DNA of 63,866 nucleotides, the filler included, from Reticulomyxa filosa (Eukaryota > Protista > Foraminifera), in the NCBI GenBank assembly GCA_000512085.1. It is 16 parts of 16 records of this genome, joined end to end, with 100 filler letters (N's around TTAATTAATTAA, not from the genome) between each part and the next. Parts side by side here need not be neighbours in the genome. Positions count along the whole stretch, not along the records: positions 41,753 to 52,522 come from ASPP01002723.1; 15 more parts are not named here. One strand, written 5' to 3'. A program made the translations under genes and the position numbers. Positions 4,837 through 56,984 of the stretch are shown here, in pieces. Position 1 is the stretch's first letter. Every line of letters starts with the position of its first letter. The notes beneath the pieces are model-generated. The model had not been told where the DNA came from, ran no database searches, and was given only the letters and a program-made list of their open reading frames with translations.

Positions 4837-4875
<39 letters not shown>

Positions 4876-6335
4876 TATTTGTTCCAAATTGTTGCATTGT
4901 CATTCGATACAGGTGTTCGGTTTTATTTGATAACGTCAAGCATCCTACACTCATTGAAACAAAAAAGTTGCAACCCAAAAGCGACATAAGTCCAGTTGGA
5001 TGTATTCCGGTGACACCCAAGTTGTTGGCTTTGTTTGAAAAGTTTGCAAAGCCAGTGCACTTTGACACACGTGACACGGCCAGAGCATGTGCCAAGAAGT
5101 GGGACGAGGAACAGTCTGTTATAGAATGGGTTTGCCCGGCGTGCACGTCTTTCAATTGCTCAAGATCACCAGTTTGCTCGATATGTTTTACAGAATACGA
5201 AATTGCGAAATTGCGAGAGCTAACAGAAAGAAAGGAGGAAGCAGTGACATTGACAAAGAGCAATGAGGTGATGAACAAAGAGGAAATAAAAGAAGAAGTG
5301 AAAGAGGAAGTAAAAGAAGAAGTAAAAGAGGAAGTGATACAAAGCAAGCCACAAATGACAAGACTTGTGACAGAGCCATTGATCGAGCAATTGATATTTC
5401 ATCAACTGCGATCACTTGCATTGGAAGCCTTGTATTGTTTACTGCAGCAGCCAGAGGCAACGAAAGCAATGTTACGTGTGAACCTGAGAAACATGTGGGG
5501 CAATTTGCTGTCAATAGCCACCAGACAAGTGGAATTGTCGGAAGACTGTTACATCAGCACCAAGCTGTTGCGTCAACAGGAAGGGCGTTTATTGGAAATG
5601 GTGCACGACAAGCGTTCGGAGTTGACGAGAGATACCACCAAGTCCACGACGAGCATGTCACAGAGACAAGTGTTGAAGCACTCGCCATTTCGCAGTTTGC
5701 GAGTTTATCTACCAAGTCGTTTGGACGTGACATCGGCAAGTGGGATTGTATTTGCAACGAATCAAGAGTTCCGTATTATGTTTAAGAAGACAGCATACGA
5801 CAAGATTGGATATTGTCGGACTAATAACATGATCCCACTATCAATTCCAAAGTACTATTTTGAAATCAAGGTGTTGGACGTGGATACGACATTGGCCAGC
5901 GACTATGAGGATTGGCATATTGCAATTGGACTGTGGCGTGCCGGGATGGCATTTCAAGGTGAGTGTGGTGAGCAAAGCAGCTACGCATATGGAGACACTG
6001 GCTATGCGTACAGCACGGACTCGGGACGTCGCGTGTCCAAGAAGGTGTCCAGTGGCTTTGGCCGAGGAGATGTTGTCGGCATGTGCTGGGATCAACACAC
6101 CAAAGCCATTTACTTCACCAAGAACGGATGCATGCTTGCCGACGATAACGAGCCTTGCTTCACCAACGTGCATGGGGAATTTTATCCAATGGTGTGGCTG
6201 CAAACCGAAGGAGCTCAAGTGGAGATCAACTTGGGTCAGGTTAAAATGGCTTTTGCTTTTGAAAATTTTGCTTACGTTTCGTTGTCTTCCAATCCATCGC
6301 AAGATAGCATTGCTCACAATGCCAATGTCAATACC
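1..6335 (+). CDS. Partial multi-exon giant protein: Q/A/P low-complexity region, CUB-like segment, RanBP2-type zinc finger, SPRY domain (probable large E3-ligase-like scaffold)
   Basis: Consecutive + ORFs joined by GT-AG introns (e.g. 1111-1188, 1680-1775, 2485-2559). WVCPACTSFNCSRSPVCSIC is a RanBP2 ZnF. YYFEIKV...IAIGL...SYAY...FGRGDVVGMCWD...IYFTKNG...FYPMV is a SPRY domain. Open at both contig ends; no HECT or RING domain seen. Confidence 0.75.
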
Positions 6336-13483: not shown

Positions 13484-16400
13484 TCAAAGTTTTCCATCAC
13501 GTTGCTTCACAAACACTTTTTGCTGGTCTTCCAAACCCTTTGCGTTCTTCCAAATACTGCCCTTCATTGATAAACCACTTTGAATACCCATTCTCCATGC
13601 ACATTTCACTAAACTCGTCTCTGTTACATCAATAATTTTACCATTATCACAACTCCATAATCGAAGTGTTTTATCTCCTGAGCATGAAACTAATTTTGAA
13701 CCATCGGGCGATAAATGAATGCCATTAATATGTCCATTATGCCCTTCCAATAGTTGAACTTGTCTTCCTGTAGACACGTCCCATATTCTAATGGTTTTGT
13801 CCTCTGAATATGAAATAATTTTAGAACCATTTGGTGTAAATTGCACTCCGTATATACAGTCCAAATGTCCTTTTAACCTTTGAATTAATTTTCCGGTTGA
13901 TGCACTCCACAATCGAATCTTCTTATCGTCTGAACAAGATACAACTTTAATACTATCTGGAGAAAATTGTACTTCATTTACCGCATCTTTATGTCCTTCT
14001 AATAATAAAAGTTGGTTTCCAGATGATACATCCCATACTCGGATTGTCTTATCCCATGAACATGATACAATTTTAGATTTATCTGGTGAAAATTGTACTC
14101 CTTCCACAGCATCTTCATGTCCTTCGAACACTTGCAGTTGGTTTCCAGATAATACATCCCATAATCGAATTGTGTTGTCATATGAAAAAGATACAATTTT
14201 GGATCCATCTGGCGAGAATTGCACTCCATTTACATCATCAGAATGTTCAGTCAACAATTGGATTTGCCTTCTTGAGGATATATCCCATATTCTAATGGTT
14301 TTATCTGCTGAGCAGGACACGAGTTTAGAACAGTCTGGTGAAAATTGTACTTTCCATATCCACTCTGAATGTCCTTCCAATAATTGAAGTAGTTTCCCTG
14401 ATAATACATCCCATACTCGGATTGTTTTGTCCAACGAATATGATACAATTTTAGAATCATCTGGAAAAAATAATACTCCATTTACACGATCTGAATGACC
14501 TTCAAATACTTGGATCTGTTTTCCTGATTGTGTATCCCATAATTGAACTGTTTTATCTACCGAACATGATGCAATTTTAGAACCATCAAAAGAAAATTGT
14601 ACTCTTGTTATTGTATCTAAATATCCTTCTGTCAATTGGATTTTTTTTTCTACAGCTACATCCCATATTCGAATAGTCCTATCATGCGAACATGACAAAA
14701 TCCTCAATTCCTTTGGAAAAAATTCTACACCAGTTATAATATCTGAATGTCCTTCCAATACTTGAATTTGTTTTCCTGATAAAACATCCCATAATCGAAT
14801 CGTTTTATCATATGAAATAGATACAATTTTGGAACTATCAGATGAAAATCGTGCTTTTGTTACGCCGCTTGAATGTCCTTCAAATACTCGAATTTGCTTT
14901 TTAGATAACGGATTCCACAATCTAAGAGTAGTGTCATCTGAATATGACAATATTTTTGAACCATCTGATGATAATTGAATTCCATTTATATCATCGGTGT
15001 GTCCTTCTAACATTTGGATTTGTTGGCCTGATAATGCATCCCATATTCGAATAGTTTTATCATATGAATACGATATAACTCTTAATCCATCAGATGTAAA
15101 CAGCGCTCCATTTACTCGATCTAAATGCCCATCTAACAATAGAAGTTGTTTTCCAGAAAATACATCCCATATTCGAATGCTTTTATCGTCTGAACATGAT
15201 ACAATTTTGGAGTTGTCTGATGAAAACTGCGCTCTATTCACACGATCGGAGTGTCCCTCTAACAATTGAACTTGCTCTCCAGATGATAAATCAAATACTC
15301 GAATAGTTTCGTCCCACGAATATAACACAACCTTAGAACCATCTGATGAAAATTCTGCTGAACGCACATCCCATGAATTTTCTTTCAATAGTTGAATTTG
15401 TTCGCCTGAGGGTATGTCCCACATAAAAACCGTTTTATCATCTGAACATGAAACAACTTTGGAACTGTCAGGTGAAAATAGTGCTATATGTATCTCCTCT
15501 GAGTGTCCTTTCAACACATTAAGCTGCTTTCGTGATAATGCGTCCCATATTCGAATAGTTTTATCAGTTGAATAAGATAGTATTTTTGTTCCATCAGGTG
15601 AAAATTGAATACCGTTTATTTTCTTTGAATGCCCTTCCAAACAAGCATATTCTCCAAAATAAATATCATTCATTGATGCATTTGTAAAATTGACCTTGTT
15701 TAAGCAAGCTTGAACAAAACGAACGTGATCTAAATTGGCATTGCTGAAATTAGTTCCTTCAAGAAATGCACGATCTAAAATTGCATAAGGAATTTTTATA
15801 TTGCTCCAGTTTTGATAGTTCATGTTAATATTAGCTGAATTGAGTATAGTGATTGCATTTGCTGCTGCAACATTAACATTTTCACTATTTTTTGATGATT
15901 CAATAATTCGAAATAATCTTGATTTTAGATTTATAAATATTGGATTATTATCATGAATTCTCTCTGCAATAAATTGAATAATTCCCAATTCTTCATTTAA
16001 TAATTTACAATTGATTGACAAGTTTGGAATATGAGTTTCAAATTGTTGTTGAAATTGTTGATCATTAACACCAACAACATTTGGTTTCCATGAAATGATA
16101 TCAAATACAATTTTTTGTGCTACATAATATTCTTGACAAGATTTATGTAAAAATTGATATTTATTATCACCAACTCTTCTTAATACATATTTGGCAATAC
16201 TGTCACCATTGAAATATTGTTCCCAAACATCTCGTGTTTTTACAATGAATATTCTCATATTGTCTATTTTTAGCTCTAATTTCTCATTTTCATTTTTAAT
16301 CTCCGTTTCTTTTGTTGGATCTAATTTGCTCAATATTTTTTCGTTTATGTGTGTTGTAACATGATTTTCCGTTGCAACTTGATTTTCTTGGATGAACATT

Positions 16401-16582
16401 TCAAATGCTAAATCTTGACAATATTGTTGCAATGAAGCTTTAATTTTTCTGGGATTAGTTTGGATTCTTAATTCAGATAATTTGGCTGCAATATTTTTAA
16501 CACGAATATCAATCCATTGTTCGTTGAATGCTTCATAAACTTGTGATTTTGATATTTTAGTTCCAATTGGATGTTGTTTCAT
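13484..16582 (-). CDS. NACHT/STAND-type protein, C-terminal part: winged-helix motif, pentapeptide repeats, 16 WD40 repeats (5' truncated)
   Basis: YQFLHKSCQEYYVAQ matches the FxHxSxQEY NACHT-associated motif. LDRAFLEGTNFSNANLDHVRFVQACLNKVNFTNASM is a pentapeptide-repeat block. Sixteen 42-aa GH...WD units follow. Intronless over 3.1 kb. Confidence 0.9.
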   Translation of the reverse strand: MKQHPIGTKISKSQVYEAFNEQWIDIRVKNIAAKLSELRIQTNPRKIKASLQQYCQDLAFEMFIQENQVATENHVTTHINEKILSKLDPTKETEIKNENEKLELKIDNMRIFIVKTRDVWEQYFNGDSIAKYVLRRVGDNKYQFLHKSCQEYYVAQKIVFDIISWKPNVVGVNDQQFQQQFETHIPNLSINCKLLNEELGIIQFIAERIHDNNPIFINLKSRLFRIIESSKNSENVNVAAANAITILNSANINMNYQNWSNIKIPYAILDRAFLEGTNFSNANLDHVRFVQACLNKVNFTNASMNDIYFGEYACLEGHSKKINGIQFSPDGTKILSYSTDKTIRIWDALSRKQLNVLKGHSEEIHIALFSPDSSKVVSCSDDKTVFMWDIPSGEQIQLLKENSWDVRSAEFSSDGSKVVLYSWDETIRVFDLSSGEQVQLLEGHSDRVNRAQFSSDNSKIVSCSDDKSIRIWDVFSGKQLLLLDGHLDRVNGALFTSDGLRVISYSYDKTIRIWDALSGQQIQMLEGHTDDINGIQLSSDGSKILSYSDDTTLRLWNPLSKKQIRVFEGHSSGVTKARFSSDSSKIVSISYDKTIRLWDVLSGKQIQVLEGHSDIITGVEFFPKELRILSCSHDRTIRIWDVAVEKKIQLTEGYLDTITRVQFSFDGSKIASCSVDKTVQLWDTQSGKQIQVFEGHSDRVNGVLFFPDDSKIVSYSLDKTIRVWDVLSGKLLQLLEGHSEWIWKVQFSPDCSKLVSCSADKTIRIWDISSRRQIQLLTEHSDDVNGVQFSPDGSKIVSFSYDNTIRLWDVLSGNQLQVFEGHEDAVEGVQFSPDKSKIVSCSWDKTIRVWDVSSGNQLLLLEGHKDAVNEVQFSPDSIKVVSCSDDKKIRLWSASTGKLIQRLKGHLDCIYGVQFTPNGSKIISYSEDKTIRIWDVSTGRQVQLLEGHNGHINGIHLSPDGSKLVSCSGDKTLRLWSCDNGKIIDVTETSLVKCAWRMGIQSGLSMKGSIWKNAKGLEDQQKVFVKQRDGKL

Positions 16583-16739: not shown

Positions 16740-19033
16740 ACACAAGAAGGGGACAAAAAGAATTATCAGAATTTGGATTGACGTCACAACAAAAAAGAAA
16801 AGTAAAAGAAGAAATGAAGGAAAAAGAAAAAGTATTACGATTTGATCCTGTGAGATATATGAAATCGATTCGACAAAAAGCAAGACCAGAATGGTTTGAT
16901 GTAACAAGAAGAAAGGGATCAAAAGTTATATAAATATATAAACATATATATATAAATATATAAAGATATAAATATATAGATATATAAATAATAATAATAT
17001 TATTATCAAATAATTATATAATTATATAGTCAGTTCGAATCACAGATCTAACAATGTACACATTAGATGAAAAAGATCTTTTATTAAGTGGTGCATTACT
17101 TAATTTAGAATATGGTCGCAAATATGGATTAGTAGGATTGAATGGATGTGGTAAAACCACATTATTAAGACGCATCTCTCGATACGATTTAAAACAATTT
17201 CCAGCACATTTACGAGTGTTACATGTCGAACAAGAAATTCTTGGAGATGATCAAACTGTATTAGATTATGTTTTGTCATGTGATGTTGTTCGTGCAGAAT
17301 TAGTCGAAAAGGAACAACAAATACTCAATCAAAAAAATGAATTGGGAGACACAAAATATGAACAAAGTAATGTATTGGATAAAAAATTGCAAGAAATATA
17401 TGAAAAGATGCGTGAATTGGATGTATTTGATGTTGATCATAAAGCTAAAGTAAATGAAATTAATTATTTTTATTTTGTTTTTATTTTTAAATAAATAATT
17501 AAATAAATAAATATTCAATATAGAAAGTATTGGAAGGTTTAGGATTTCGTCCAGAAATGTATAATTGGCCAACTAAAAAATTATCAGGAGGTTGGCGTAT
17601 GAGAGCATCATTAGCAGGAGCTTTATTTGTTTGTCCTGATGTTCTGGTAATATATATTATATATGTATATTTATATATATTTTTAATAATAATAATATCA
17701 ATATTATTATTATTATTATTATTGATACTTAGCTTTTGGATGAACCTACCAACCATTTGGATTTTCCCAGTGTTGTATGGTTAGAAAATTATTTACGTGA
17801 AGAATTTCAAAATACATTATTGGTTGTGTCACATGACAGAGAATTTTTAAATTCTGTTGTTGATCGTATTTTACATATGGAAAAACAACAAATTCGAGAA
17901 TATCCAGTTAATTATTATTATTATTATTATAAATATTTAATAATATTTTAAACAATATATACATAATATTAGGGAAGTTTTCAACACTTTTTACAAACAC
18001 GACAAATGGAATATGAAACTGCTTTAAAAAATTATGAAAATCAACAAGAAGAAATACAACATCATAAACGTTTTATTGATCGTTTTCGTGCAAGTGCTGC
18101 TAGAGCCGCTAGTGTACAATCACGTATTAAAATGCTCAATGCAATGGAACGTTTTCAAAAACCAGAAAAACCTTTCACTTTAGAATTTGAATTTCCTCAA
18201 TGTTCCCATGTTAGTGGTGACGTTATTTCTTTGCGAAATGTTACTTTTGGCTATAACAGTAAAGAAATTTTATTAAATGGCATTTCTCAAAATATTGGAT
18301 TAGATTCAAGAATCGGAGTTATTGGTGCAAATGGTGCCGGAAAATCTACTTTAATTAGTTTAATGTTAGAGCAAGTTTAGATGATTATGTACAAATATAT
18401 ACATATGTATATGCACACATTTATTATATAAATGCATGCACATATTTATAAATACAGTTGAAACCTATCAAAGGTGACGTCGTACGCAACAGAAAAGCAA
18501 GAATTGCTGTATTTACTCAACATCACATTGATCAATTAGATTTATCCATGTCTCCTATGGATTTTTTACTTGCAAAATTTGCTGATGATTGCAGAAGTTT
18601 AATTTATTTATTTATTGTTATCATATTAAGTAATAATAATAAACAATACATATATAATATAGAAGAAAAACGTCCTGCAGAATATATTCGTAATAAATTA
18701 GGCGCTTTTGGTTTAAGTGGAGAAATTGTCAATCAAAGAATGGTATTCTTATCCGGAGGTCAAAAATCTAGAGTTGCTTTTACAATATTAACGTGGGAAA
18801 TTCCACATTTTATTATTATGGACGAGCCTACTAACCATTTAGATATGGAAACTATTGATGCTTTAATCGGAGCCATTCATAAATGGAATGGTGGAATACT
18901 TGTTGTATCTCATGACCAACACTTTTTAATGAGTGCTGCCAAGAAATTTTGGAGTTTATCTATTAAATCAGGAACCATTGAAGAATTTGTTGATTTAGGC
19001 AAAGCCAAAGATTTCGCTTCTCATCGAGCATGA
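16740..19033 (+). CDS. ABC-F family ATPase (GCN20/ABCF3-like), multi-exon, 5' partial
   Basis: Two ABC cassettes: GLNGCGKT / LSGGWRMR / LDEPTNHLD and GANGAGKS / LSGGQKSR / MDEPTNHLD. No transmembrane segments. Short AT-rich introns. Confidence 0.92.
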
Positions 19034-19368
19034 TCATAATAACAATGATTTAATTTATTATGTCTGTCTGTGTTTGCATTAAGGGAGTCATTTTTATTTT
19101 TTTTTTACCAAGCATTTTTATTTTCATCAATACGAGATAAAACCCCGCATATCGCGTTACTTTTCGCGTTTTCCTCTATATCTATAAATTTTTGCCTTAT
19201 TCGTGTTCTCTTACAATATGGATTTGTCACAAAAAAGTAGCCATACGCAAAAAGTATCAACACCGACAATGCATTAGAAAATATTTTCTCTTTTTTTTCA
19301 AGTTTGGAAAAAATTTATAGACGGTTGTCAGCTTGAAAAAAGAGGGAAAGAAAGCTAATAATAAAAGT

Positions 19369-21031
19369 ATGATTGCCATGTCAGATGTTAAAGATGAAAC
19401 TAAGGAAGAAGAAAAAGAAGAAGGAGAAAATGAACAGGAGTACTATAATGATCGAGTTCTGCATCAGCTTCCTGCAATACCACGATTTCCACTAGGAAGC
19501 AAAAAGCTTTTTGAAAAAGAAAATACAATACATTTGGGACTCTTGGAAGAGCACTTTAAAAAAGAAGGACGACTGGAACAAAAAGCAGCAATGCGTATAG
19601 TGCAAACGTGTGCAGAAATATTGAAAAAAGAGCCAAACACATTGTATTTGAATGATCCGATAGGAATAGTGGGAGATGTACGTGGTCAATATTTTGATTT
19701 GCTCAAAGCAATGGAAACAATTGGTGATCCAGCAAATACTCAGTATTTATTTTTGGGAAGCTATGTAAATAGAGGATGTCTCTCATGTGAATGTGTATTG
19801 CTATTATTTGCATATAAAATAACTTTCAAAGATTCATTTTTTATGCTTCGAGGAAATCAAGATACAAGAGCAATGTCTACTTTCTTTTCATTCAAGGACG
19901 AATGTAAGCGTGCAAAAAAAAAACTTTGTCCATATATACGTATATACATGTATACATGCATGTACGTATATATTGACAAATATGACCAGGTAAGTATAAA
20001 TACAATTTGGAATTGTACGACGCAATAATGAATTGCTTTGACTGTTTGCCAATTGTTGCTATTTTGAATAAGAGGATTTTTTGTTGCCATGGAGGCATAT
20101 CACCTGATATCTATACGGTTATAATTACATTCCATCTTTTTTGTTGTTATATATACGTATATATAAACACATGTGTATACATATATACATATATATATAT
20201 TTATGTATACGTGTATATTAGTATATATATGTACATGTACACATGCATACATAGATTGAAGAGATTGACAAATTGAATCGATTTCAAGAGGTCCCTGAAG
20301 AAGGACCAATGTGCGATTTGCTGTGGTCAGACCCAGCAGATGAATATCAAATTGATGAAGATGATGAAACAAAAGAGAGTGAAGAAAAGAATGTCAGTTG
20401 GTTTGCCTTTAATGAAACGCGACAACGCTCGTATGTGTTTGGAATCAGTGCAATTGATGACTTTTTGAAAAGGAATAAGTTGGATAGCATTATACGTGGA
20501 CATGAAGCTAATTTTGACGGATACAGCATGAAATATATTAACAAGCAGACAGGCATTCCTCGAGTTCTTACCGTTCACTCCGCACCCAGTGTTTCCATGG
20601 ACATATACCTATGTAAAGGTGCATGTGTAAATATCAACGATATGGTCATTCGTATCTTGCCTTTTTTAAGATCACCAAATCCTTATTTTTTACCCAATTT
20701 CATGGACGTGTTTGCATGGTCATTACCTTTTGTCGCTGAAAAAGTTGTGTCCTTTTGGCATGATGTCCTCTCTTTTGAAGAGCCGATTACCGACACTGAC
20801 GATATCATAAAATCACAAATACAACTCCCAATCCTTGCCAACAAAAGGTCCGTTTTAAAATATAAACTCTTTTTTGTTGCCCAAATTGTTTCTATTCATC
20901 ATGTCCTTTCCCACTCCAAAGCCGATGTCGCCTGTTTGAAATCTTTACTTTCTGATAACAAACTGCCTCCTGCTACACTCTTTTCAGGATTTGCTCATAT
21001 TGCAAATATTATGAAAACGCGACATTATTAA
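19369..21031 (+). CDS. Calcineurin A (PP2B)-like protein with degenerate catalytic motifs (probable pseudophosphatase)
   Basis: Introns 19904-19989 and 20118-20254 give a continuous PP2B-like chain including CDLLWSDP and the CnB-binding helix LPNFMDVFAWSLPFVAEKV. Motifs read GDVRG, GSYVNRG, RGNQD and SAPSV. Confidence 0.88.
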
Positions 21032-24746: not shown

Positions 24747-27215
24747 TTACTTTGATTTCTCATTGAAATCAGCATCAGCAGTTTGTTCCTATTTGTATTT
24801 GTCCACAAAAAGTTTAAAAAAAAAAAATAATATATATATAATATACAAATTAAAGATTAACATTTGTCTTGTCTGCTTGTTGTTGTTGAGTGCCTTGATT
24901 CTTGCCATAAATTTTTTCACCAATTTTGCTTAATGTTTTATTCAATTTATCTCTTGGGCCCTTCAATTCTTCAGCTGTGGCATTTTGTTTATTGCGAACA
25001 TCTCGCAAATTATTAATACATTCTTGAATTTCTTTGCGTAAATCATCATCAATTTGTGATTTGAATTCTTCTAATTGACTTTCTGCTTGCCAAATCAAGC
25101 TATCTACACTATTTTTTCTTCAGCTGATTGTTTTCTCTTCACATCCTCAGCACGCATTTTCTCAGCATCCTCTTTCATACGACTGATTTCTTCTTTGGTT
25201 AAACCTCCACTGGTTTGAATACGCATGCTATGATCTTTACTGGTGCTTTTATCTTTGGCAGACACATTCAAAATGCCATTTGCATCCAAATCAAAGAGAC
25301 TTCAATTTGTGGACGTCCTCGAGGAGCAGGTGGGATTCCAACCAAATCGAAATGGCCCAAATATTTATTGTCAGCAGCCATTTCTCGTTCTCCTTGATAA
25401 ACTTTAATGCCCACTTGTGTCTGATTATCAGCGGCAGTGCTAAATACTTCCGATTTCTTTGTCGGAATAGCAGTATTTTTCTCAATCAAACGTGTAAATA
25501 CACCACCCATTGTTTCAATACCCAATGACAATGGAGTAACATCAATCAACACAATACCGTCCAATTTTCCTCCAATCACACCTCCTTGAATTGCGGCTCC
25601 CATGGCAACGACTTCATCTGGATTCACCGACTTGGAAGGTACTCTGCCAAAGAATTTTTCCGCAACTTCTTGGACTTTTGGCATACGTGTCATGCCTCCG
25701 ACTAAAATGACCTCTGCAATATCTGATTTGTTAATGGAAGCATCTTTCAAGCATTGTTCGCAAGGAGGAATTGTCTTTTGGATCAATTTGTCAACCAAGC
25801 CTTCAAATTTGGCTCGGGTCAATTCCATATCCAAATGCTTTGGGCCACTGGAATCCGCACTAATAAATGGAGCACTCAAATCTGTCTTAGTGGCGCTGGA
25901 GAGCTCAATTTTGGCTTTTTCTGCAATTTCTTTCAGACGTTGAACTGCCAATGGATCTTGCAGCAAGTCAATTTGCTGTTGCTTTTTAAATTCGTTACCG
26001 ATATATTTCAACAGTTCATGGTCAAAGTCCTCTCCACCCAAAGCTGTGTCTCCATTGGTTGCCATCACTTCAAACACTCCCTCGCTCAATGACAATATAC
26101 TGATATCAAACGTGCCTCCGCCCAAATCATATACCGCCACAATGCCGTCTTTTTTTGGATCGGCCACGCCTGAGTCTTTGCCAATACCATAAGCCAAAGC
26201 TGCTGCAGTTGGTTCGTTCAACACTCTTTTTACCTGTGTATGCAGATTACAAAAAAAAAAAAAAAAAGGGGCATAGTGTTTTCATATAATCTTTTTTGCA
26301 TTAAACCTTACTCTTATATTATTCGAATTGCAAACACGTTTCAAAAAAAAAAAAAAAAAACACAAATATATAAACGTAACATTCAGTCCAGCAATGGCAC
26401 CAGCATCCTTAGTTGCCTGTCTTTGTGAGTCGTTAAAGTAGGCCGGTACTGTAACTATCGCGTCTGTTACCTTTGATCCAACGTATGACTCAGCCGTTTC
26501 TTTCATTTTTTGTAACACAAACGACCCGATTTGTGATGGGCTGTATTTCTTTTGTGTTACATCACAATGAACCCATGCGTCGCCATTGTCTCCTCGAACG
26601 ACTTTGTATGATAAATGTTTTGAAATTTCTTGTGTTGCTGGGTCCTCAAATCGTCTTTTTTTTTTAAAAAAAAAAAAAAATAATAAGTTTAGAGTTTTTT
26701 TAAATTTTTTTCTTTCTCTTCACCCCTCCCCCTTTTTCATTCATATACCCCCTTTTTTTTTGTGACAAGAAAATTCCCAAATTTTCTGAGTCCTCTTTCT
26801 TCCTCAAGTACAAACCTTCCAATCAAACGCTTGGTGGCGTAGAAAGTGTTTTTTGGATTGGTTATTGATTGTCGCTTTGCAGGCATACCCACCAACTTCT
26901 CCACTTGGCCTTGTTTATTTGCAACAAATGCAACAACTGAAGGAGTGGTGCGTCCACCTTCACTGTTTTCAATAATTTTTGCGCTTCCTTCATATATCGC
27001 CACTGCACTATTGGTTGTCCCTAAGTCGATACCTATTATAGCATTTCGGCGTGCTATTTGTTGCAATGTGCGATTCGGCGTGACAAAATTCTATACAACA
27101 TTTCCAAACAAGCTTTCAAAACCAAAAAAAAAGTAGCTCAACAAAAATAACATCATCACCAAAAACTTACATGGTGTGCTACGTTTCGTGTTAAACGCGA
27201 AACTAACGAAGTCAT
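24747..27215 (-). CDS. HSPA9: Mitochondrial Hsp70 (mortalin/Ssc1-type), multi-exon
   Basis: Arg-rich presequence [15 protein letters not shown]|[16 protein letters not shown]. Motifs [48 protein letters not shown] and [10 protein letters not shown]. Two single-base frameshifts in homopolymer runs (~25290, ~25110). Confidence 0.95.
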
Positions 27216-43150: not shown

Positions 43151-44320
43151 TCATTTCCAAATGCATATGTTATTGACATTCAAATCTGATATAATTGCAT
43201 TTCCAGTAGGTGAGACATCAATACAATTCGAATAAGAAGTATTTCCTTCTAATTTATCTATTTCATTTCCTGAACTTACGTCCCAAATACGAATTGTCTT
43301 ATCATTGGAACAAGACACAATTGTTTGATCATCTGGAAAATATTTCACTTGATTTATAACATTCGTGTGTCCTTTTAATATTTTCAATTGACTCCCTGAC
43401 TCCACATCCCATATTCGGATTGTTTTATCACATGAACATGAAATACAAATTGATCTTTTGAGAAAAATTTGCACACATTACAGAACCCGAATGTCCTGTT
43501 AATTCTTTTAATCTTTTACCTGATTTTACATTCCAAATACCAATTGTCTTATCATTCGATGCTGACACAATCTTTTGACAATCAGATGAAAATTGTACAG
43601 TCCATACACCATCTGAATGACCTTCTAGTGTTTGAGTCAGTTTTCCTGAATTTGCTTCCCATATTTGTATCATTTTATCGTATGAACCTGATACAATATA
43701 TCTTCCATCTGGAGAAAAATTTACATTTAATACAAAGCTTAAATGTTCCAATTTCATTACTTCTCGTCCTGATTCTACATCCCATAATCGAATTGTTTTA
43801 TCATAAGAACATGAAACAATTGTATATCCATCTGGTGAAAATGTTACGCTAATGACATAATCGGAATGTCCTTTACAACTACGAATTGGTTTTCTGGATA
43901 TAAAATCCCATATTATAATTGTTTTATCTTCTGAAACTGATGCAATCTTTTGGCCATCACATGAAAATTTTATACTCCTTATTGCATGGTTATGACCTTG
44001 TAAAATTTGTAACAATTTGAAATACTTAATCTGTATTGTTGAATATAATTGATAATTAGTAACAGATTTTTAAAAAATACAAAACAAATAACACAACATA
44101 ATTGGCCACAATTTTGTCAAAATTATGGATCCACCCAATATCAATACGTATCATTCGACGCCAATTTTGGACTATCGTCGACACTTCTTGTTCTGACTTT
44201 GTTTTTGTTAAACGATTTTAATACATAAAATTATAGCTTGGCTTTGACTTTAATTGAAAGGGTAAATAAAGTTACCAATCGTGGTATTGTATTTGCTTTT
44301 TGCTTACTATTAGTATTCAT
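43151..44320 (-). CDS. WD40-repeat protein (7 repeats) with an N-terminal 'LGWI' box exon; frameshift near 43450
   Basis: Exon 1 44320-44276 (MNTNSKQKANTIPRL), intron, exon 2 44196-44098 (SEQEVSTIVQNWRRMIRIDIGWIHNFDKIVANY), intron 44097-44031, exon 3 IKYFKLLQILQGH... with seven GH-WD repeats. Confidence 0.85.
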
Positions 44321-47300
44321 CACTGTTACTATTTTTCTTTGTCTAAAAAGAAAGACAACGGATTTGAACTTTTGAATATCTCGTCTAAAAAAAGACTACA
44401 GGTTTGGTAAAAAAAATTGTTTTGTTTATCATTTGCTGTATAGCAACAAAGCGAGGATTATTCAAATATTCCAAAATTTAAAACAAAACAAAGTTTTATC
44501 CATATCTTTTGAATATTTACAATTATCGATTATCTTTGAAACTCTAAAAACGAATGCTTGCACCTTGTGACGAAAAGCAAATGATATTGTGACGATTATA
44601 GTAATGATGTTGTGAAAATTTTACACAATACACAAAAGATGGATGTCGATTAAATAATTGAATTTATTCATTAGTCTCTATCTATATTCCATACACGAAC
44701 TATTTTATCATTTGATCCAGAACAAATGAACTGATCTTTGACGACGAAAGAAAAATGGAACTTTTTTAATCAAAGGGTTTTCAAAGACATGAAGACAAGA
44801 ACAACTTGCTCGAAATTGATATAGGATGTATATTACAAGTTAGTTCATAGTTCAAAGTTTTTTAACAAAAACTTGGGATTAGATCAGACTGTTGCATTTC
44901 GTAAGATGGCCACTCGTTTCGCTAAAATATATGCAAGGGCGACAAAGTTATACTACGCAATATTATGTAGGAGTTAATTTTTTTAAACATAAATTGAAAC
45001 AATTTTTTTTTCCATTTCAAGAAAATAAAATAATTGTTTTAAATTTGTTTTCTCAAACCTTTCATACTCTATATCAGAATATAATGGCCCGATATTGAGT
45101 GTTTTCAATGCAAAACTTAAGTTATTATATATTTGATTTCTTTATTTTCAAGAAAGATAGCATCTTATTGGTTTTAGTCAAAATTTTTCCATTTCATTCA
45201 CAAATGAAACGAATTTAAAAACATGATTGCTTGAAAAAAAGATTTTTACACAATTTCTTTAATAAAAAAAATAGCCAATGATACAATAAGTTTAATAAAT
45301 GTCAATATTGTTTGAAAAATTATGGATAATATCTAAATTTAAGATCTTTTGTCTGTTTTGTAGCTATGCAATACATTTACATAAATTACTTTAAATTACA
45401 AAAAACTCTTTTATATATTTCAATATCTCAGGGAAAGCTCATCAAGATATCAAGATGGTCATTGAAGTGTGGATAATCTGAAAATAATGGAAGTATTACA
45501 TGAGCATATGCAACATAAAACTATAATTGAATCTTCTCATAATTAAAATCTACCATAGAGAGCTCAAGATAAGCACAAGAGAACTACGTATTTTGATCTT
45601 AAAATGCATCTTATGTGTTGATATTGTATCAACTGTTGTACAACTATATCATCTTATGATACAAAGCAAGTAAGACTCAAAGGAGAAAATAATTGACCGT
45701 TGATTTTGTGTATTTTACCTTTTATGTAAATCAATTACCCAAAAAATTAAAATAATTCATCATATGTTGAGATTTTGCGTTATATAGTAATAATTCTTGG
45801 CAAAGATTAGTGTTGTGCTTAACTCGGTTGAATATTTCATTTTTTTTTCCCACCCTTTTTAAAAAATCTTGCATATAAGCTTTAACGTTTACACTTTGGC
45901 TAGGCACTAGAAACAGATAAAGAACTTGAGCAGTTGGAGTTTAATGTGGGGGCGTGATGTCTCCAGATCAGTCTTTTGATTACGCCGAGGCAAGTTAGAA
46001 ACATATGTTTACCTTAGCATTGAAAAAAAAAGTATTTAGCAAAACAATAAAAATTAAAAAAATAGAAGCGAATTGCAATGTATTGGACAATTACAATCGA
46101 TTTCAAATTTTTTTGGTGATATTTAGCGGCTTTCTACTATCGAATGCGATAACAAAACTCAGGAGATGGCCGCACGATGATATACATGCTACGAATAGTT
46201 ACAAAAGCACACTGGCTCCAGTTGCGCTGGCCTTTGGTATTTCTTTTGGTTAAGAAAGCCGTAACAGCATTTGCAATTTTCTTGCAGCTATTGTTTTCTT
46301 ATGGACTATTTCATCAGCAACAAGGACAAATATGAATAAAGTCTTCTATATCTGCATGAGCATTGTAGTGTCTGTTGTTTTAAACTAATCTTTCTGTCAT
46401 GAAGTTTACTGCTGGTTGTGCATTTGCAAAATCTGTCAACAATTTTTTTTTGTACGTTCTTTCTATTTCGCTTTTTCAAAGTCACAATTTCTTCCATTGC
46501 TTTAGTTTGCTTGGCAGATAGCATTTTTATTAAAAATAATATTACGCGCTGTATAAGTATGTATAAAATATACATAAACTTATAAATCATATACATTACA
46601 TATAATGTACATATATGTATGTATATAATAGTGGATGCATCTACACTCAATCGGTATAAGCAAGAAAAGGAATGAAGACGAAATATTGTATATTAAAATG
46701 CGATTTGGAAATTGAGAAAGAAAAGAGAGAAGTCTACTCCAGTTTTGCTACCACTGTTTATATTTAATGGAAAAAAAGGTTGCTATAAACAACAAATTAA
46801 CACGTAACATTTTCTGTCTAACTCCAACACTTGGTTAAGTGTTTTTTAATTATCAGCTTGCATACAAAAAACTCTAATAACTCGGTTTACAAGTTGTGGC
46901 CTTTTTCTTATTATCGGGAAAATAATATCAAGGCCAAAGAAATGAAAACACTGAAAATGGTCTTATTATTACTAATTTCACTTCACTTAAACATAATATA
47001 CAAACAAGAAATATGTATCTTTGAAGATCTTTCAAACTGTAAATATTATTCTTATTACATTATCAAAAACCTCTCAAATTTGTTTAATCTTATTCAAAGA
47101 CATTAAACTATTTGGTTATTGGTAATAAGATGCTTGGACACGATAATGTACAAGTTTTTCCAATGTTGGAAACTATTGCTTGAAGAAACAAGACTATTGG
47201 ATGCGAAATCAAGAAAATACAGAAATTGAGATCACGTTCAATAATGATTAGATAATGTACATAATCAAGGATCACATCAGAGCAAAATAAACAACTGTAA

Positions 47301-47349
47301 ACTTCTCGTAGTTTTTTTTTTGAAGAAAGGAAGAAGAAGGGATCTACTA

Positions 47350-48245
47350 ATGGGTAATAAGACCTCCAAAAACTCACCAAAAAAACGAAGAAAGAGAGAT
47401 TTTCCTCTAACTTTGCAAGAATGGTCAACAGGTTGGAAATTGACAGAAGAACATAAAGTTGTTTTGGAAGAAATTTTTTCTTGTTACAGTTTGCAAGACG
47501 TAATAGAGATTGTTTTTTCTTTTGTTGGACAATATGAGGATTGTAAAACGTATTATCGTTTAATTCGCCCAAACCTGTGTGATTTAAATAAGGACAATAC
47601 TCTTTCAACATCATTTTATATATCTCCAGAATGGCTTAAGTTAATGTTGTGTGTATATGTTATGATGATGTGTACACATACACAATAGTATCAAAATAAT
47701 GATAAATAATAATGAATAGATCTGAATATAAAATAACAATTTTTGGAGCTGTATGTTCAGGTCGATCTAGTTTGAGAATTCGAACGACTATTAATAAATT
47801 TATTGAGGAATATGATCCAACAATTGAAATGATCTATCAAAAGAAAATTCAATTGAATGATGAACATAGTTGTGTAATAAATTTTTTTGAACAACGTGGA
47901 CAAGAAGAATTTATGGGATTGTTAGCAGCATATTCACGTAATACTGATTGTGTAATTATTGCATATGATGTAAATGAACAATCTTATCGTGCAAAAGAAA
48001 TAATTGATCATTATTTATCAATTGCTCGACGTGGTAACGAAGATATTACAGTTATAATTATTGGTACAAAAGTAGATTTAAGAAATAAACCTTTAGATTA
48101 CACTCCATATATTAATTCTGTTGTTGAATACTGTAAACAACATAATTTATGTTATATTGAAACTTCATCTAAAGAAAATATTAATGTTGATTTTTTATTT
48201 CAATATGTTGTTTATAATATTTGGTTTGATTCTTTTCAAGAATAA
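47350..48245 (+). CDS. Divergent Ras-family GTPase with N-terminal extension and no CAAX
   Basis: Exon 1 47350-47639, intron 47640-47719. G1 GAVCSGRSS, effector loop FIEEYDPTIE, G3 EQRG, G4 TKVD, G5 ETSSK. Starts MGNKTS followed by KKRRKR. Confidence 0.85.
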
Positions 48246-48766
48246 TTGATTAATTTCAAAATTTTGTTTCACAATCACCAAATTTAATTTTAATATTCTA
48301 ATCCAATGTGCAATAACGATTTTGGTTTTTTTTGACCGATTTAATCACAATCGCATATCTTAAAGAGAGACAACTTTCTCAAAGATCAATAATAAACTGA
48401 AGTTTACAATAGTGGTGTTGAATTTTTTTCATTAATTAAAGTACCCATTCATTTAGCACTCTTTTGATATTGAGTTACAATCAGCCGCAAAAAAAAAAGC
48501 CACTATAACGATTTTTGCATGGTTTTCTACACTTTTATTAAAAACCAGAGCATTTTTAGATTCTACATGATGTCTAGATATCACTTAAAAAAAAGATTTT
48601 GAAAACTTTTAATTTTTCATGAATAAAATTGCAAATGTTTATAGAGGGTCTTTTTTAGGTAGATTGTACCTTTTAATTTTTATTAAAACTAATTTTTGTT
48701 TGAATAATATCTTTTTTTTTTAAAAGGGTCACAGTACATTCACCTTTTTTTAAAAACTTGAACAAC

Positions 48767-49987
48767 ATGGGTAATAAAAATACGACCCTCTTTCAAAATT
48801 TGAACGATTTACCTGCTACACTTTCTTCCGCTCAATATGTGCCACACAAACACGAACTCCTCATTTGTGGAAGTGTAACTAATAGATCTTGTTATTCTTA
48901 TCATACACTCAAAAACGAATACAAGTTTATCTGTGAGTATCCAAGCCATGTTCAATTAGTTGGATACTGTGTAGTGAAACTGGCAGACAACAAAGATAGC
49001 AATCAAATCACTTTGTTGTCTTTTGGTGGAGATAAAAATTTAAGACATACACTGGTGATGAAATATGTAAGTATTTGGAGTAATATATCAAACAAATCAA
49101 ATGAATTAAACAATTACAATCAATGGATTCCTTTCACAGACAATCACAATCATCCAATTATCATTGGAAAAGATCAACATAGCTATTATCATGGAATGCG
49201 TGCAGTGATTGGTGGAAAAATAATAATTTGTTATTTATGACTTATTATCCAAAGAATATTATCGTGTTTGATTTAAATACATTTCAATTTATTAATCATA
49301 ATACTTTACCAACTGATGATTATATTCGTCATCATTGCTTTGTATCAAATTCAGAAAAGGGAAAAGCACAAAAAAATGATGAAAACAAATCCAAAAAATA
49401 AACAAAGTTATCAAATGCTGTTGTTTTGTAAAAAGACAGGATTATCAATTGAATATAACGAAGATAACAACGCTTTTCAATTTCATCAATTACATGTTTG
49501 TGATGATATTGCACCATTCAATAGATATGCATATGTGCGTATCAACGATATTATCTTGTTCTTTGGTGGGTATTGGAATGATAGTAAGCTGATTGTTTCA
49601 AAATCAGTGTATAAGTATTCAATTCGAGAAAACAAATGGACGACATTTCAAAATACTTTACCCAGTCCATTATATGAATGTGTTGCAATATTGAGAGAAG
49701 ACGATAATTATATTCATATCATTGGAGGAAGAGATGATAAAAATGCAATTGTATCAACTCACATGAAGACTGCAGTGCGTGTATGGGATCCTTCACAGTT
49801 GGTAATATTTATTTATTTATTTTGATAAAACCAAATAAGTTATATTGAATAAATAGCAAATAATAAACAGTCAAAAAACGAAATCAAATTTATTAATCAA
49901 TACTGGATTCGAACTTTAGAGATAAAATTAGGATGGATCGATGATTTTGATCAAATTATTTTTAAATACAGAAAAAATAAAGTTTAA
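48767..49987 (+). CDS. Kelch-like beta-propeller protein with a C-terminal 'LGWI' box exon (two homopolymer frameshifts; possibly pseudogene)
   Basis: MGNKNTT start; GG-containing blades (LLSFGG, AVIGG, LFFGGY..VYKYSIRENKW, IHIIGG). Intron 49802-49870; last exon SKNEIKFINQYWIRTLEIKLGWIDDFDQIIFKYRKNKV*. Confidence 0.8.
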
Positions 49988-52296
49988 TAGAGGTAATTAA
50001 TTTTTACTATCTGTTTGAATAATTATTGCATATATTGGTATTATTCAATTCCTCTTGTTTTATAAAAACGACAAATATGTTGATAAAATTGCAAGTTATT
50101 CCTTAATCAATATTTCAATTTAACAAAAAAGAGAAAAACGTTAGTAAATTTCTTAATTATAAAACAGGCACAGATAAAATAAAAAACAAATCAAAGAAGA
50201 TATTATACATATCTTCTAATACAATTTGTTTTTGAGTAAAATTTACCATCAATTGTGAAATACTGATTATATCACAGATGTAAACTGTTCTTTTTTACTG
50301 TTTTTATTGTTTTTGCTTGGTTAAGGCTTCAGTAACATTCATGTTAACCTTTTCTAGAGTTTTTGATGATTATTGTCTATTTTCACAAAACAAAACAAAA
50401 CAATCTTCGTTGCTTTTTTGTGTTTTTTCCTTCAATGGGTGTTCAAGTTTGTTGAAAGTGTGTTTTCTTGAATCAAATATTTATTTTGAACTTTTTTGTA
50501 AAGCAGTGTCGCAACGTCTTTGGTCATGGGTCATTTGGTCTCATTGTTTTAGTCAATTTTAATTTCCAAAGAACGAATATTTGACGTCACACCTTCAAAC
50601 AACTTTAAGACATCGAAACGCATTCAGAGGCAGTCAAGGCGACGCTAAAAAAGATAGAAAAAAAAATTGGGAAAATTGGAAAATGGATAAGTTTAATGTG
50701 TTCGAACGAATATGCCAAAAGTTCGACATAAGCGAGTTCATGACGAGTGTGTACCAAAGCAGCAACAACCAGTACTATCATTTCTTTTAACAAAGCTATG
50801 AAATTGGTTCATTTTTGATTTTACATTCCAAATCCTCTAAAAATTGCAATTTCTTGCGAATTCCATTTATTTTTTAACTCACCACATATCTTTATCCAAT
50901 TTTGATCCTATTTAATCAGTTTTTGTAATTTATCATTGAATTCATTATAACCTTTATCAAAGGCATGAATTTGATTAATTACTATTATTGTTGTTTTTCA
51001 ATCGATACTTCTCTTTCGATGGAACAAAGGTGGTTATATTGTTCAATGCACTGTGTATATTCTAAAAGGACTCCAGACAGTAACTTAGGGTCCTTTTTTT
51101 TGCGATGGAATAAAAATATAGCAAATTAATGCAGTGGAAAAAGTTATTAAAGGGATACTATGATTGACCAGAATTTGAAAACATGAGAATGAGCTTGGAA
51201 GATGAAGAATGAAAATTTTGTAAAGTATCTATTGCTTTGTCTAAAATCTGCAACACCTTTTGTTTGAAAATTTGCTCATCATCCAGCTGTATTAGGTAAA
51301 AAATCTTTATAAAGCAAAGCAAACTTTATTTGCTTTTAATGTGATGAAATAATAACACACTTGCTTGGGTCAAGATATTGGAGGAAAAAACGTTCTTGAG
51401 AGGCTGGTTATTATGAAAAGTAAAAGTACACAAATTTTTATTCGTCCTTTTATGTTTTTGGCAAGGATAAAGTGCATTAAAATGTTAACATTTCGCACTT
51501 TTGAGAGATTGGATGAACAATGGAAAATTATTCATTTGATTTTCTTTTATTGTTCACCAAATTGCGACAAAGTCATTATTAGGACTAATTGCATATTTTT
51601 GCAAAAGTAACTTTGAAGAGAACTCTTTGCCATAAAAAAAATTTAAAAAAGCAATGAAAAAACATTGAACAAAGCTCTAAATTCAATGATTCAGTATGGA
51701 AATAAGCCACAAACTATTGATTGGAATTGTTTGAAATGGGTTCTGTATTTAAATTACTCATTTCCTATAATTTTGAGTAAACTAGAAATTAAAACAAATA
51801 AATTCTTGTTGACTCCAAAAAAGTTTTTTTGATGAAAAACAAACCTTGTTTGCTAGTAAAGAAGCAAAAATACTAAGAAATTAGAAGTTATTCCAGTTTT
51901 AACAAGTCATTCATTTTCGTTCATCAACTATACTCATATTCTCTTTGTATAGTTTCAGAGATTTGTTAATTGTTGCAATGACAAAAAGAAGAATTCTTTC
52001 CTATAGAAAAAAAATATCATTTGTGTGCATGCATAAATAATGGGTGTCATTGTGATTTATTAAGGCACAAAGTTTTGATTGTAAATATTGTCTCATTACA
52101 AAGTTTATATTTATTAAATAAAAGAAATTCATTTTAATTTTTTATTGACCTTTCGTGGTCTTGAAAAAAACGCGTCTTTTCATCATCAAAGCTCATCTCA
52201 AGGAAAAAAAGGAGATACTTTAGCTTAGTAATGAAAGTTTCGTTTAAGTTGTTTTTTTAGATTTCTTCTTCTCATTTTGCTTTATGCTTGGAACAG

Positions 52297-52522
52297 TCAA
52301 AAGAAGAAGAGATCCAAATCATTGTTCATTATTGGATTCGAACATTAAATATTCAATTAGGATGGATCAAAGATTTTGATAAACTCGTTGTTCAATTATG
52401 TTAGTTCATTTGTTCTTTATTTTCTTAAATGCCAATCAAAACATTGTAATATTATTTACATAGGTGTATAATATCTTCATGTTTGACACATTTCGTTCAT
52501 CATCCAAATTAATCAATACATT
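52297..52522 (+). pseudogene. 5' part of a WD40-family gene with the 'LGWI' box exon (1-nt insertion; truncated by contig end)
   Basis: AG|SKEEEIQIIVHYWIRTLNIQLGWIKDFDKLVV..|GT intron 52400-52463, then VYNIFMFDTFRSSSKLINT. This mirrors the box-intron-'KLLxxxxGH' layout of 43151-44320; the WD40 repeats themselves lie beyond the contig end. Confidence 0.65.
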
Positions 52523-52650: not shown

Positions 52651-52986
52651 TATGAAATGTATTAATATAAATTAATAAAAACAAATAATAATGAAAAGGA
52701 TTATGATTTATAAATATTTGTATGTTGTAGTCATTGTAATACAACAGAAGAAGACCTTTTAAAAAAATAATACAAATATATTTCTAAATAAGCCAAAAAT
52801 ATTTATCAAAAATGCATGTCGATAAAATGAGCAAGCTCAACGAAAAAGAAGAAATAATTCACAATGTGTAACAATGAATCAGAACTTTTATAATATTTTC
52901 AACAACACCTAGAAAAGTAATATTTGATTCAGAAGACCACGAAAAAGGAATTAAGTTATTTTACTAAATATTTTTGTAATGTTATG

Positions 52987-53160
52987 TGCATACGACAATT
53001 TGGTGAAAGTTTATCGCAAAAAAGGAGAATATGACAAAGTAAATTAGTATCATTAAAAATTGGACTGTTTAATTAGTACATTATATTATTACTTATAGAC
53101 AATTTATATTTTTTTTATCACAAAGGAGAATATGATAAAACAATTGAATATCATGAAAAA
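52987..53160 (+). pseudogene. Decayed TPR-repeat gene fragment
   Basis: AYDNLVKVYRKKGEYDKV* and YHKGEYDKTIEYHEK are two TPR-like units interrupted by stops. Confidence 0.6.
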
Positions 53161-53403
53161 TTTGTAAGCGTATTTGAAATAAGTTTTGAATACATAAAAG
53201 GAATAAAAGTGAATTTTATTTTGTATTGTAAAGTTTGTTTTTGTTGTTGGACATTTTACATTATTTATAATAAGTTTATTTTAATCTGCTATTACTTTTT
53301 ACTTTTGGAAAAAAAGGAAATAGAAAGAAAGCATGATTTATATGTATTTTAATTGTACTTCTTTATGGAAAATCAATTATCTCTATAATGCAGCATTTAA
53401 ATT

Positions 53404-53622
53404 TCAAAATTTACTATATTGGAAAATAATTTGATTAAAATCGTCAATCCATCCCAGTTTTATCTTTAAGGTTCGAATCCAATATTCAGTAATAAGTTTT
53501 ATTTCTTTTTTTGGCTATTCATTATTTATTATTTAGTTTCATACAATAAAATTTGACAAAAAAAAAGGGGTTGAAAGAAAATTACCAACAGTGAGCCATC
53601 CCATACACGCACTTTTGTCTTT
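53404..53622 (-). CDS. 3' end of a Kelch-like paralog with the C-terminal 'LGWI' box exon
   Basis: KTKVRVWDGSLL, intron 53585-53515, then PKKEIKLITEYWIRTLKIKLGWIDDFNQIIFQYSKF*. Parallels the 3' end of 48767-49987. Confidence 0.8.
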
Positions 53623-53849: not shown

Positions 53850-54150
53850 TTGTATTGTATTAGATTTTCAATGGATGGTGATATTATTGTTACATCGACA
53901 GACTTTAGAACAATTCAAATATGGAATGTGCAATTAGAGAAAGAAATTCGAAGTTTCAGAGGATATAACGACTGCATCGATTTTACAAAATTTTCATCAT
54001 TTGATGGAATAATAAAATTATGTGATATAAATACTATAAATATGATACAAACGTTAACTGATAATTTAGATCGAATAGAAAGTGTTCAATTTTCGCCATC
54101 GTATCAACATCTGTGAATACAATCAGCTTTTGGAATGTAAAAACAGGTGT
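53850..54150 (+). pseudogene. Decayed WD40-repeat fragment
   Basis: IRFSMDGDIIVTSTDFRTIQIWNV...SFDGIIKLCD...IESVQFSP, with deletions and stops. Confidence 0.6.
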
Positions 54151-55873: not shown

Positions 55874-56984
55874 GCATTGGAAAAGAATTGTGCGCAGGAG
55901 AATTTGCCCATTATGTGTTAACATTTGATAACATTTTGAAAATGGTGGCCATTGCGCAGCAAATCCGATCAGACACGCCAGTAATTTTAATGGGAGAAAC
56001 AGGCTGTGGCAAGACTTCATTGATCAAATGTCTTGCCAAGGTTGCCAATGTCAAATTGGAAGCGGTGGATGTGCATGGAGGCTTTACGAGAACTGACATT
56101 CGTCAGATTGTGCGCGATTGCACCGAGCAATTCAACATGCAAGGTCTGAAAGAAATGTGGATATTTTTGGACGAAATCAACACATCCCCAGATCTTGGAT
56201 GGTTCAAGGAATTGATTTGCAATCACACTATTGATGGAATCAATATTCCAAAGGCAGTTAAAATCATTGGTGCTTGCAATCCATATCGACGAAGAAGATT
56301 TGATGGCCACGTGAAAGAAAGCGTTTCCAAAGACCCCCTCAGCCAGTACGTATACCGCGTTTTCCCATTGCCCGAAACCATGAAAGAGTACGTATGGCAG
56401 TTTGGCAGACTATCGAATTTGGATGAGAAACAATATATCCTGGAAATGACGAAAAAGACTATTGCTAGATTGTACCCCAAAAAGTCTCAAAAATGGAGTT
56501 CGTCCATCCCTTCTATTGTTAGAAAAATTTCAATTTCGCAAAACTTTTTACGCAAAAACTTGCAAGATAAGGCAATTGTGTCGCTTCGCGATGTGGCCAG
56601 ATGCTTGAGTACGTATTCCTGGCTCCGTCGACGATCTTCCAAAACGTATGCTGTGTCGAATTGGTCGGGGAAATGTTTGACTATTGCATTGGGATTATGC
56701 TATTACTTCAAGCTGAATAAAAAAGAGAGGGAAGACTATAATAAGGTGATTTCGAGCAATTGGGGTACTCCCTTTGATCGACAATTACAAGAGGAAATAG
56801 ATACATTATGTAACTGTTTTGAAATTCCATCAGGAGTGGCCAGGAACCAGGCTTTGAAAGAAAATTTGTTTGTATTGTATCTGTGCATTATGACAACAAC
56901 ACCGATTATTTTAGTTGGAAAGCCAGGAACATCGAAAACACTTTCGTATCAAATCATTCGAAACAATTTGTCACACTCTGGAAT
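55874..56984 (+). CDS. RNF213 (mysterin)-like dynein-related AAA+ ATPase, internal fragment
   Basis: YVLTFDNILKM..PVILMGETGCGKT (Walker A), IFLDEINT (Walker B), ACNPYR, VYRVFPLP..VWQFGRL, VSLRDV, NQALKENLF, and a second Walker A LVGKPGTSKT. This motif series is characteristic of RNF213. Confidence 0.85.

Follow-up and report, generated by a model that had tools for sequence, protein, structure and literature searches.

A conserved box shared by Kelch and WD40 propeller genes of Reticulomyxa filosa, with exon boundaries probably inherited from three-part genes

The stretch of DNA analysed here (63,866 nucleotides, hereafter the window) consists of 16 contigs of the foraminiferan Reticulomyxa filosa joined by N-linkers. 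By Table 1 of its publication, the R. filosa assembly comprises 50,809 scaffolds with an N50 of 3,609 and a mean intron length of 87 bp (PMC13746701). Five loci of the window carry a short conserved motif, here called the box, that belongs to Kelch or WD40 propeller genes (Table 1); all junctions in these copies were derived from the DNA together with public gene models. A search of the box profile against the six-frame translated window recovered the four copies named in an earlier, sequence-only reading of this DNA (E-values from 2e-23 to 7e-13), as well as a fifth, decayed one (E 2e-5) that has lost its acceptor AG. In this fifth copy, a leader starting with ATG at 48448 is followed by GTAAAC at 48407, an intron of ~72 nt that ends in CGG and a degenerate box from 48335.

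Table 1. Coordinates of the box-bearing loci and their parts in the window
Feature	Position	Strand	Remarks
Copy 1 leader exon	44276..44320	-	15 codons from ATG; Leu codon TTG before GTAACT; putative splicing
Copy 1 upstream intron	44197..44275	-	79 nt, phase 0, AAG acceptor; putative
Copy 1 box exon	44098..44196	-	99 nt, 0-0, ends TAT|GT
Copy 1 downstream intron	44031..44097	-	67 nt, phase 0, GTTGTG...ACAG; putative
Copy 1 WD40 propeller exon	43151..44030	-	in frame with box exon; Pfam WD40
Copy 2 Kelch propeller exon	48767..49801	+	Pfam Kelch; last codon is Leu TTG
Copy 2 intron	49802..49870	+	69 nt, phase 0; public model RFI_02821 (P0002) splices here
Copy 2 terminal box exon	49871..49987	+	38 codons and stop
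Copy 3 upstream intron	52228..52296	+	69 nt, donor TTA|GTAATG; putative
Copy 3 box exon	52297..52399	+	103 nt, frameshift near its end; main box-WD40 family
Copy 3 downstream intron	52400..52463	+	64 nt; putative
Copy 3 main-family WD40 exon, start only	52464..52522	+	cut by contig end
Copy 4 Kelch exon, last codons	53586..53622	-	cut by contig end; end matches Kelch model P0003
Copy 4 intron	53515..53585	-	71 nt, phase 0
Copy 4 terminal box exon	53404..53514	-	36 codons and stop
Copy 5, decayed 5' end of a box-WD40 gene	48240..48448	-	leader, intron and box; lower end approximate

The copies differ in their state of preservation. The leader of copy 1 is similar to the short leaders of other box-WD40 models, its AAG acceptor and downstream donor GTTGTG are both atypical, and its WD40 exon is interrupted by a single frameshift near 43465, adjoining base runs. 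Directly upstream of this leader lies the remnant of a broken main-family WD40 gene (44502-44681, minus strand). In the Kelch exon of copy 2, frameshifts at two A-runs (about 49215 and 49370) compensate each other, and the public protein RFI_02821 is 100% identical to this copy. For copy 3, the public model RFI_02822 (P0004) takes an acceptor different from the AG|TCA at 52297, the leader lacks an in-frame ATG, and the copy is likely a pseudogene. The readable protein end of copy 4 (53404-53622, minus strand) is identical to P0003 (RFI_21730, on a contig of 6,587 bases); as far as their sequences tell, copy 4 and P0003 are alleles or very recent duplicates.

Several other genes were recognised in the window. 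A Ras-family GTPase exon (47341-48245, plus strand; Pfam Ras, E 1.9e-26), whose upstream frame adds an extra N-terminal region with no Pfam match, abuts copy 5 with its 3' end on the opposite strand. A long ORF (13487-16582, minus strand) combines a pentapeptide-like stretch with 16 WD40 repeats and has no box; its N-terminal region is like that of the NACHT-type models P0024 and P0211 discussed below, and its architecture appears NLR-like by eye. Further observations include an Hsp70 (25271-26281, minus strand), a SPRY-domain protein (4731-6335, plus strand), a calcineurin-like phosphatase (19321-21031, plus strand) and an ABC-F-like ATPase (17566-19033, plus strand), the last two recognised by eye, as well as an intronless fragment with dynein-related AAA domains (55874-56984, plus strand; Pfam AAA_5, E 1.2e-9), reminiscent of RNF213/mysterin-type ATPases. 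TPR-like and WD40-like fragments, degraded by stops and frameshifts, were seen by eye at 52800-53180 and 53860-54150 (both plus strand). The contig at 36760-38103, with 61% GC and an HlyD-type membrane-fusion protein, is likely bacterial DNA in the assembly.

The splice motifs listed in the sequence-only reading, namely AG|TCA at 44196 (minus), 49871 (plus) and 52297 (plus), AG|CCA at 53514 (minus), and TTG|GTAA at 44276, 49801 and 53586, are present in the DNA, with introns of 79, 69 and 71 nt behind the three donors. Its statement that every copy starts after an AG holds for four of the five, the exception being the decayed copy 5, and the donor of copy 3, which it had taken to be unreadable, can be read at 52228 as a Leu codon other than TTG. 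The same donor context had been noted in both WD40 and Kelch hosts, and Pfam does place WD40 after copy 1 and Kelch before copy 2, but copies 2 and 4 belong to a single paralogous family, which leaves the three donors with one independent cross-family comparison. The agreement exceeds chance: in the whole window, TTG precedes only 16 of 467 GTAA sites, a fraction that understates the rate at true donors, since the 467 are all GTAA occurrences. The symmetric 0-0 exon ending in TAT|GT that had been ascribed to the WD40-type genes was found in one of the two such copies, as the exon of copy 3 has a length that is not 0-0 as it stands; in the Kelch copies the box exon is terminal and reaches the stop, and symmetry is therefore inapplicable. 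A box exon bounded by putative phase-0 introns does occur in two propeller families.

The box spans 33 residues, about 14 of which are conserved hydrophobic positions and six near-invariant (93 proteins); in the column profile, the W, G, W, I, D and F positions are kept in 91-93 of these 93 proteins. Between the box exons of copies 2 and 4, 82 of 99 bases are identical and dN/dS is 0.12, while their introns barely align (p 0.012 vs. shuffles). The box is under purifying selection as a protein. When the flanking introns of the window copies were aligned, a comparison that the sequence-only reading had proposed for all genomic copies, copy 1 did not match copies 2 and 4 above shuffles (p 0.086 and 0.067), although this missing cross-family alignment is weak evidence because synonymous sites are near saturation.

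The family was surveyed in a protein set gathered by three word-based searches and an unindexed search of 1.84 billion representatives (best 150 of 180). All 93 proteins from the first box search were named Reticulomyxa filosa. The matches listed comprise 248 proteins, 247 of them with a box: 115 have the architecture box-WD40, 82 Kelch-box and 14 Kelch-box-WD40, and 36 have a box with no recognised domain, mostly gene models that run into introns. One candidate, P0143, was a repeat false positive and was dropped from the set. Among the Kelch-box models of these matches, the protein ends no more than six residues past the box in 61 of 82. The 14 three-part models, which include full-length examples, fall into two classes, here called coiled-coil and plain. 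Three-part loci include RFI_32390, RFI_29569, ETO30070 and ETO35640. The models are predictions on a fragmented assembly in which some models fuse neighbouring genes (e.g., P0096), and the intron positions outside the window were deduced from protein models only.

Inspection of the flanks of the box proteins among the matches listed yielded no clear case of a third host family. Three models (P0024, P0211 and P0183) have NACHT-like or zinc-finger sequence ahead of the box and may be fused neighbour genes or real chimeras; since an ordinary leader still intervenes in one of them, we tentatively read them as fused neighbours. The matches whose names were checked (10 among the representatives from the unindexed search) all belonged to R. 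filosa, except for P0216, P0212 and one false match. P0216 and P0212 (JGI/IMG and ENA records) are 42 and 62 residues long, consist mostly of a divergent box and sit near the coiled-coil class on long branches of the box tree; their sequences hint that the box may exist outside the R. filosa assembly. Two metagenome loci selected from 348 pattern matches were rejected as chance matches (stop-rich frame, 47% GC).

In the public annotation, the box proteins appear as WD-40 repeat protein or Kelch motif family protein. The annotated WD40 and Kelch expansions of R. filosa are thus the same genes as the box family, and the annotation names neither the box nor the three-part architecture and draws no link between the two families. 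A search of titles and abstract openings returned no paper on Reticulomyxa with kelch or exon shuffling, or on this motif; the 2014 genome paper and its supplements, which lay outside that search, may mention it.

As suggested in the sequence-only reading, the box tree was compared with the propeller trees. All trees are unrooted, as is the direction of any change read from them. The box trees were built without models that are mis-spliced inside the box or duplicate window copies (8, then 15 named), and the Kelch and WD40 trees used 12 main-family and 29 Kelch-box rows. Boxes sort by host, which is contrary to the cassette proposed in that reading, although at least one domain rearrangement is needed: the presence or absence of an upstream Kelch changes only 4 times over 173 labelled boxes, compared to at least 48 times in 200 shuffles, and two of the exceptions are coiled-coil-class models that are short at their 5' end. 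The host split was starred (96) in a smaller box tree and unstarred with more sequences. Holding the Kelch-bearing boxes together was not rejected (p-AU 0.55, sample of 70 rows), a test of low power given that, with 33 columns, it failed to reject a control grouping as well (p-AU 0.11).

The two three-part classes behave differently in these trees. The coiled-coil class occupies one side of a starred branch in both the Kelch tree (99) and the box tree (97/90), and in the WD40 tree it is not one group (2 changes). In the plain class, the WD40s of the three models long enough to be tested form a clade (99), and the Kelch domains and boxes are placed among those of the Kelch-box genes, where the plain genes are scattered (3 changes in the Kelch tree, 4 in the box tree), so that several losses or re-fusions are needed. 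The WD40 of copy 1 groups with those of three-part and c1-type models (the latter a group of 23 models that includes copy 1) and apart from the main family (100). A boxless WD40 gene of the window also falls inside this group, which may therefore be generic. The linker between box and WD40 is similar in c1-type and three-part models. A Leu directly before the box, with two offsets allowed, was found in 46 of 72 Kelch-box, 5 of 14 three-part, 10 of 23 c1-type and 18 of 68 main-family models, and the longer motif xQL in 27 Kelch-box and 3 c1-type models. In two coiled-coil-class models, P0151 and P0226, the downstream junction perhaps lies two codons later.

The box is a conserved module that occurs after Kelch, before WD40 and between both, and we hold it probable that its shared boundaries were inherited from Kelch-box-WD40 genes and are not those of a moving cassette. 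The history proposed here builds on the sequence, the model architectures, the tree patterns and selection, with the splicing and the direction of change read from them. It would begin with a three-part Kelch-box-WD40 gene, with a phase-0 intron on either side of the box, and with many duplications of that gene. Kelch-box genes could then have arisen where the WD40 half was lost, the box exon reaching a stop and the upstream intron being kept, and box-WD40 genes with both introns, such as copy 1, where loss of the Kelch half left a short leader ending at the old Leu|GT donor. One derived box-WD40 branch would then have grown into the large main WD40 family, to which copies 3 and 5 belong. Multi-domain genes are well known to fuse, split and be truncated at introns. 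With three-part models standing between the two families, common descent is enough to account for the shared junctions. The conserved Leu is encoded by the host exon ahead of the donor, so a cassette would not have carried it along, and a shared ancestor would have passed it on. Copy 5 has decayed as what was evidently a gene's 5' end. Descent through three-part genes likely explains both introns without the box having moved alone.

The sequence-only reading had seen in the same boundaries a direct trace of exon shuffling, with the intron and box exon travelling as one 0-0 cassette from one gene family to another, here Kelch and WD40 genes that would otherwise be unrelated. Neither the trace nor the cassette is supported by our data, and we regard this scenario as very unlikely. 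As read from the DNA, the box exon of copy 1 is exactly 0-0 and contains the whole motif, matching phases are an accepted mark of exchanged modules (PMC3632108), and three models offer possible further hosts, but the two families are bridged by three-part genes, boxes track their hosts, the introns are not alignable across families above shuffles, the shared Leu codon stands outside the cassette, and P0151 and P0226 suggest a shifted downstream junction. Moreover, phase 0 accounts for 46% of human introns according to the same source (PMC3632108), so a single 0-0 exon proves little; with this human figure as a stand-in, our own arithmetic expects about 1 exon in 5 to be 0-0. Compared to class 0-0 module shuffling as outlined there (PMC3632108), copy 1 has the module on one exon between putative phase-0 introns and the box occurs in more than one architecture, whereas it has only two host domains that are bridged by three-part genes, sorts with its host, is encoded by a terminal exon in Kelch genes and bears no sign of repeated insertion into unrelated hosts.

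A different order of events is also conceivable, in which leader-box-WD40 genes came first, a Kelch gene was attached in one or two recombination events located at or close to the upstream phase-0 intron, and WD40 was lost later on to give Kelch-box genes. The diverse c1-type box-WD40 genes, which surround both three-part classes in the WD40 tree, and the phase-0 intron between Kelch and box in copies 2 and 4 agree with such Kelch-block shuffling, and unrooted trees fit a Kelch fusion onto an older box-WD40 gene equally well. However, the Kelch domains of both three-part classes are homologous, which would require two fusions or a single early one, and the Leu (sometimes xQL) common to Kelch ends and WD40 leaders would put the breakpoint upstream of the intron. 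We consider this order unlikely but a serious rival; were it true, it would count as exon shuffling of Kelch. It is highly improbable that the boundaries are partly an artefact, with most copies being pseudogenes or mis-assembled and real transcripts using other splice sites. The frameshifts in copies 1, 2 and 3, the decay of copy 5, the atypical sites of copy 1 and the other acceptor in the public copy 3 model would fit an artefact, but the low dN/dS of the exon next to introns that barely align, and the dozens of models that splice or read through at the same places, speak against it, and copies 1 and 2 have their frameshifts within or next to base runs, as is frequent with sequencing errors. 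At least one domain rearrangement must have happened. The earlier observation of the junctions was mostly right, and the mechanism behind them is likely descent through three-part genes.

No Pfam family matched the box, including F-box, SOCS (E up to 10) and LisH, a PDB sequence search with the box gave no match, the box-plus-flank alignment matched through its WD40 flank only, and the ESM Atlas contained no feature matching the box, its structure matches falling below the threshold for naming. In the predicted structure of P0064, both propellers are confident and the box forms a helix (331-344), a loop and a second helix (352-363) at a pLDDT under 50; modelled alone with AlphaFold it is one long helix (pTM 0.43), and Foldseek with the three-part model returned only propellers. 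The P0064 model suggests, at low confidence, a helix-loop-helix. We infer that the box presents a surface in need of a partner; as it has stayed nearly invariant while the paralogues diverged, a single common partner seems likelier than self-pairing.

Substrate receptors of cullin ligases, among them the F-box and SOCS-box proteins that tether variable domains to the ligase, are known for pairing a small box with a variable propeller in large families rich in pseudogenes. By analogy, the box may be a two-helix hydrophobic motif that docks many variable propellers on one invariant partner, perhaps a cullin ligase adaptor, a reading that we hold tentatively, at somewhat less than even chances. 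Like the cullin-RING receptors (F-box-WD40, F-box-Kelch, BC-box-CUL2-box Kelch, SOCS-box and DCAF WD40 proteins), the R. filosa proteins combine a small conserved, putatively helical motif with variable propellers and form a large, lineage-specific family in which many copies are broken; unlike in these receptors, the box is also placed between two propellers. A BC-box register set by eye was rejected, as a near-invariant acidic residue falls where the pattern has a small one. Cullin receptors are defined by adaptor-binding motifs, and the CUL2/CUL5 box patterns contain a proline (PMC13061254). The predicted second helix of the box fits the hydrophobic spacing of the CUL2-box pattern (PMC13061254) by eye, whereas the 93-box profile has no conserved proline such as that of the CUL2/CUL5 (SOCS) box.

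The predicted first helix of the box resembles the LisH pattern. Like LisH proteins (LIS1 and TBL1-type WD40 proteins, muskelin with Kelch), the box proteins carry about 33 residues, which may form two helices, attached to a propeller, but the box loop of ~7 residues is longer than the LisH turn, and no CTLH domain was seen in the box proteins. LisH itself is a short helical motif of WD40 and Kelch proteins that mediates dimerisation (PMC2518711, PMC12648486). A LisH-like self-association motif seems to us a somewhat doubtful assignment, and a function other than this or common-adaptor docking is unlikely.

The finding is modest as a case of exon shuffling; what deserves further attention is the undescribed box. 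Present in at least 244 R. filosa models or candidates and matched by neither Pfam nor PDB, it ties two propeller expansions into one family. It is a speculative extension of the receptor analogy that the box could be an undescribed ubiquitin-ligase adaptor-binding motif, and that hundreds of Kelch and WD40 propellers, including two-propeller Kelch-box-WD40 receptors, could form one foraminiferan substrate-receptor superfamily diversified by splitting at the box introns; F-box expansions in plants and nematodes would be its counterpart. If the box docks on one partner, this would provide a function for a large share of the genome's unexplained repeat proteins.
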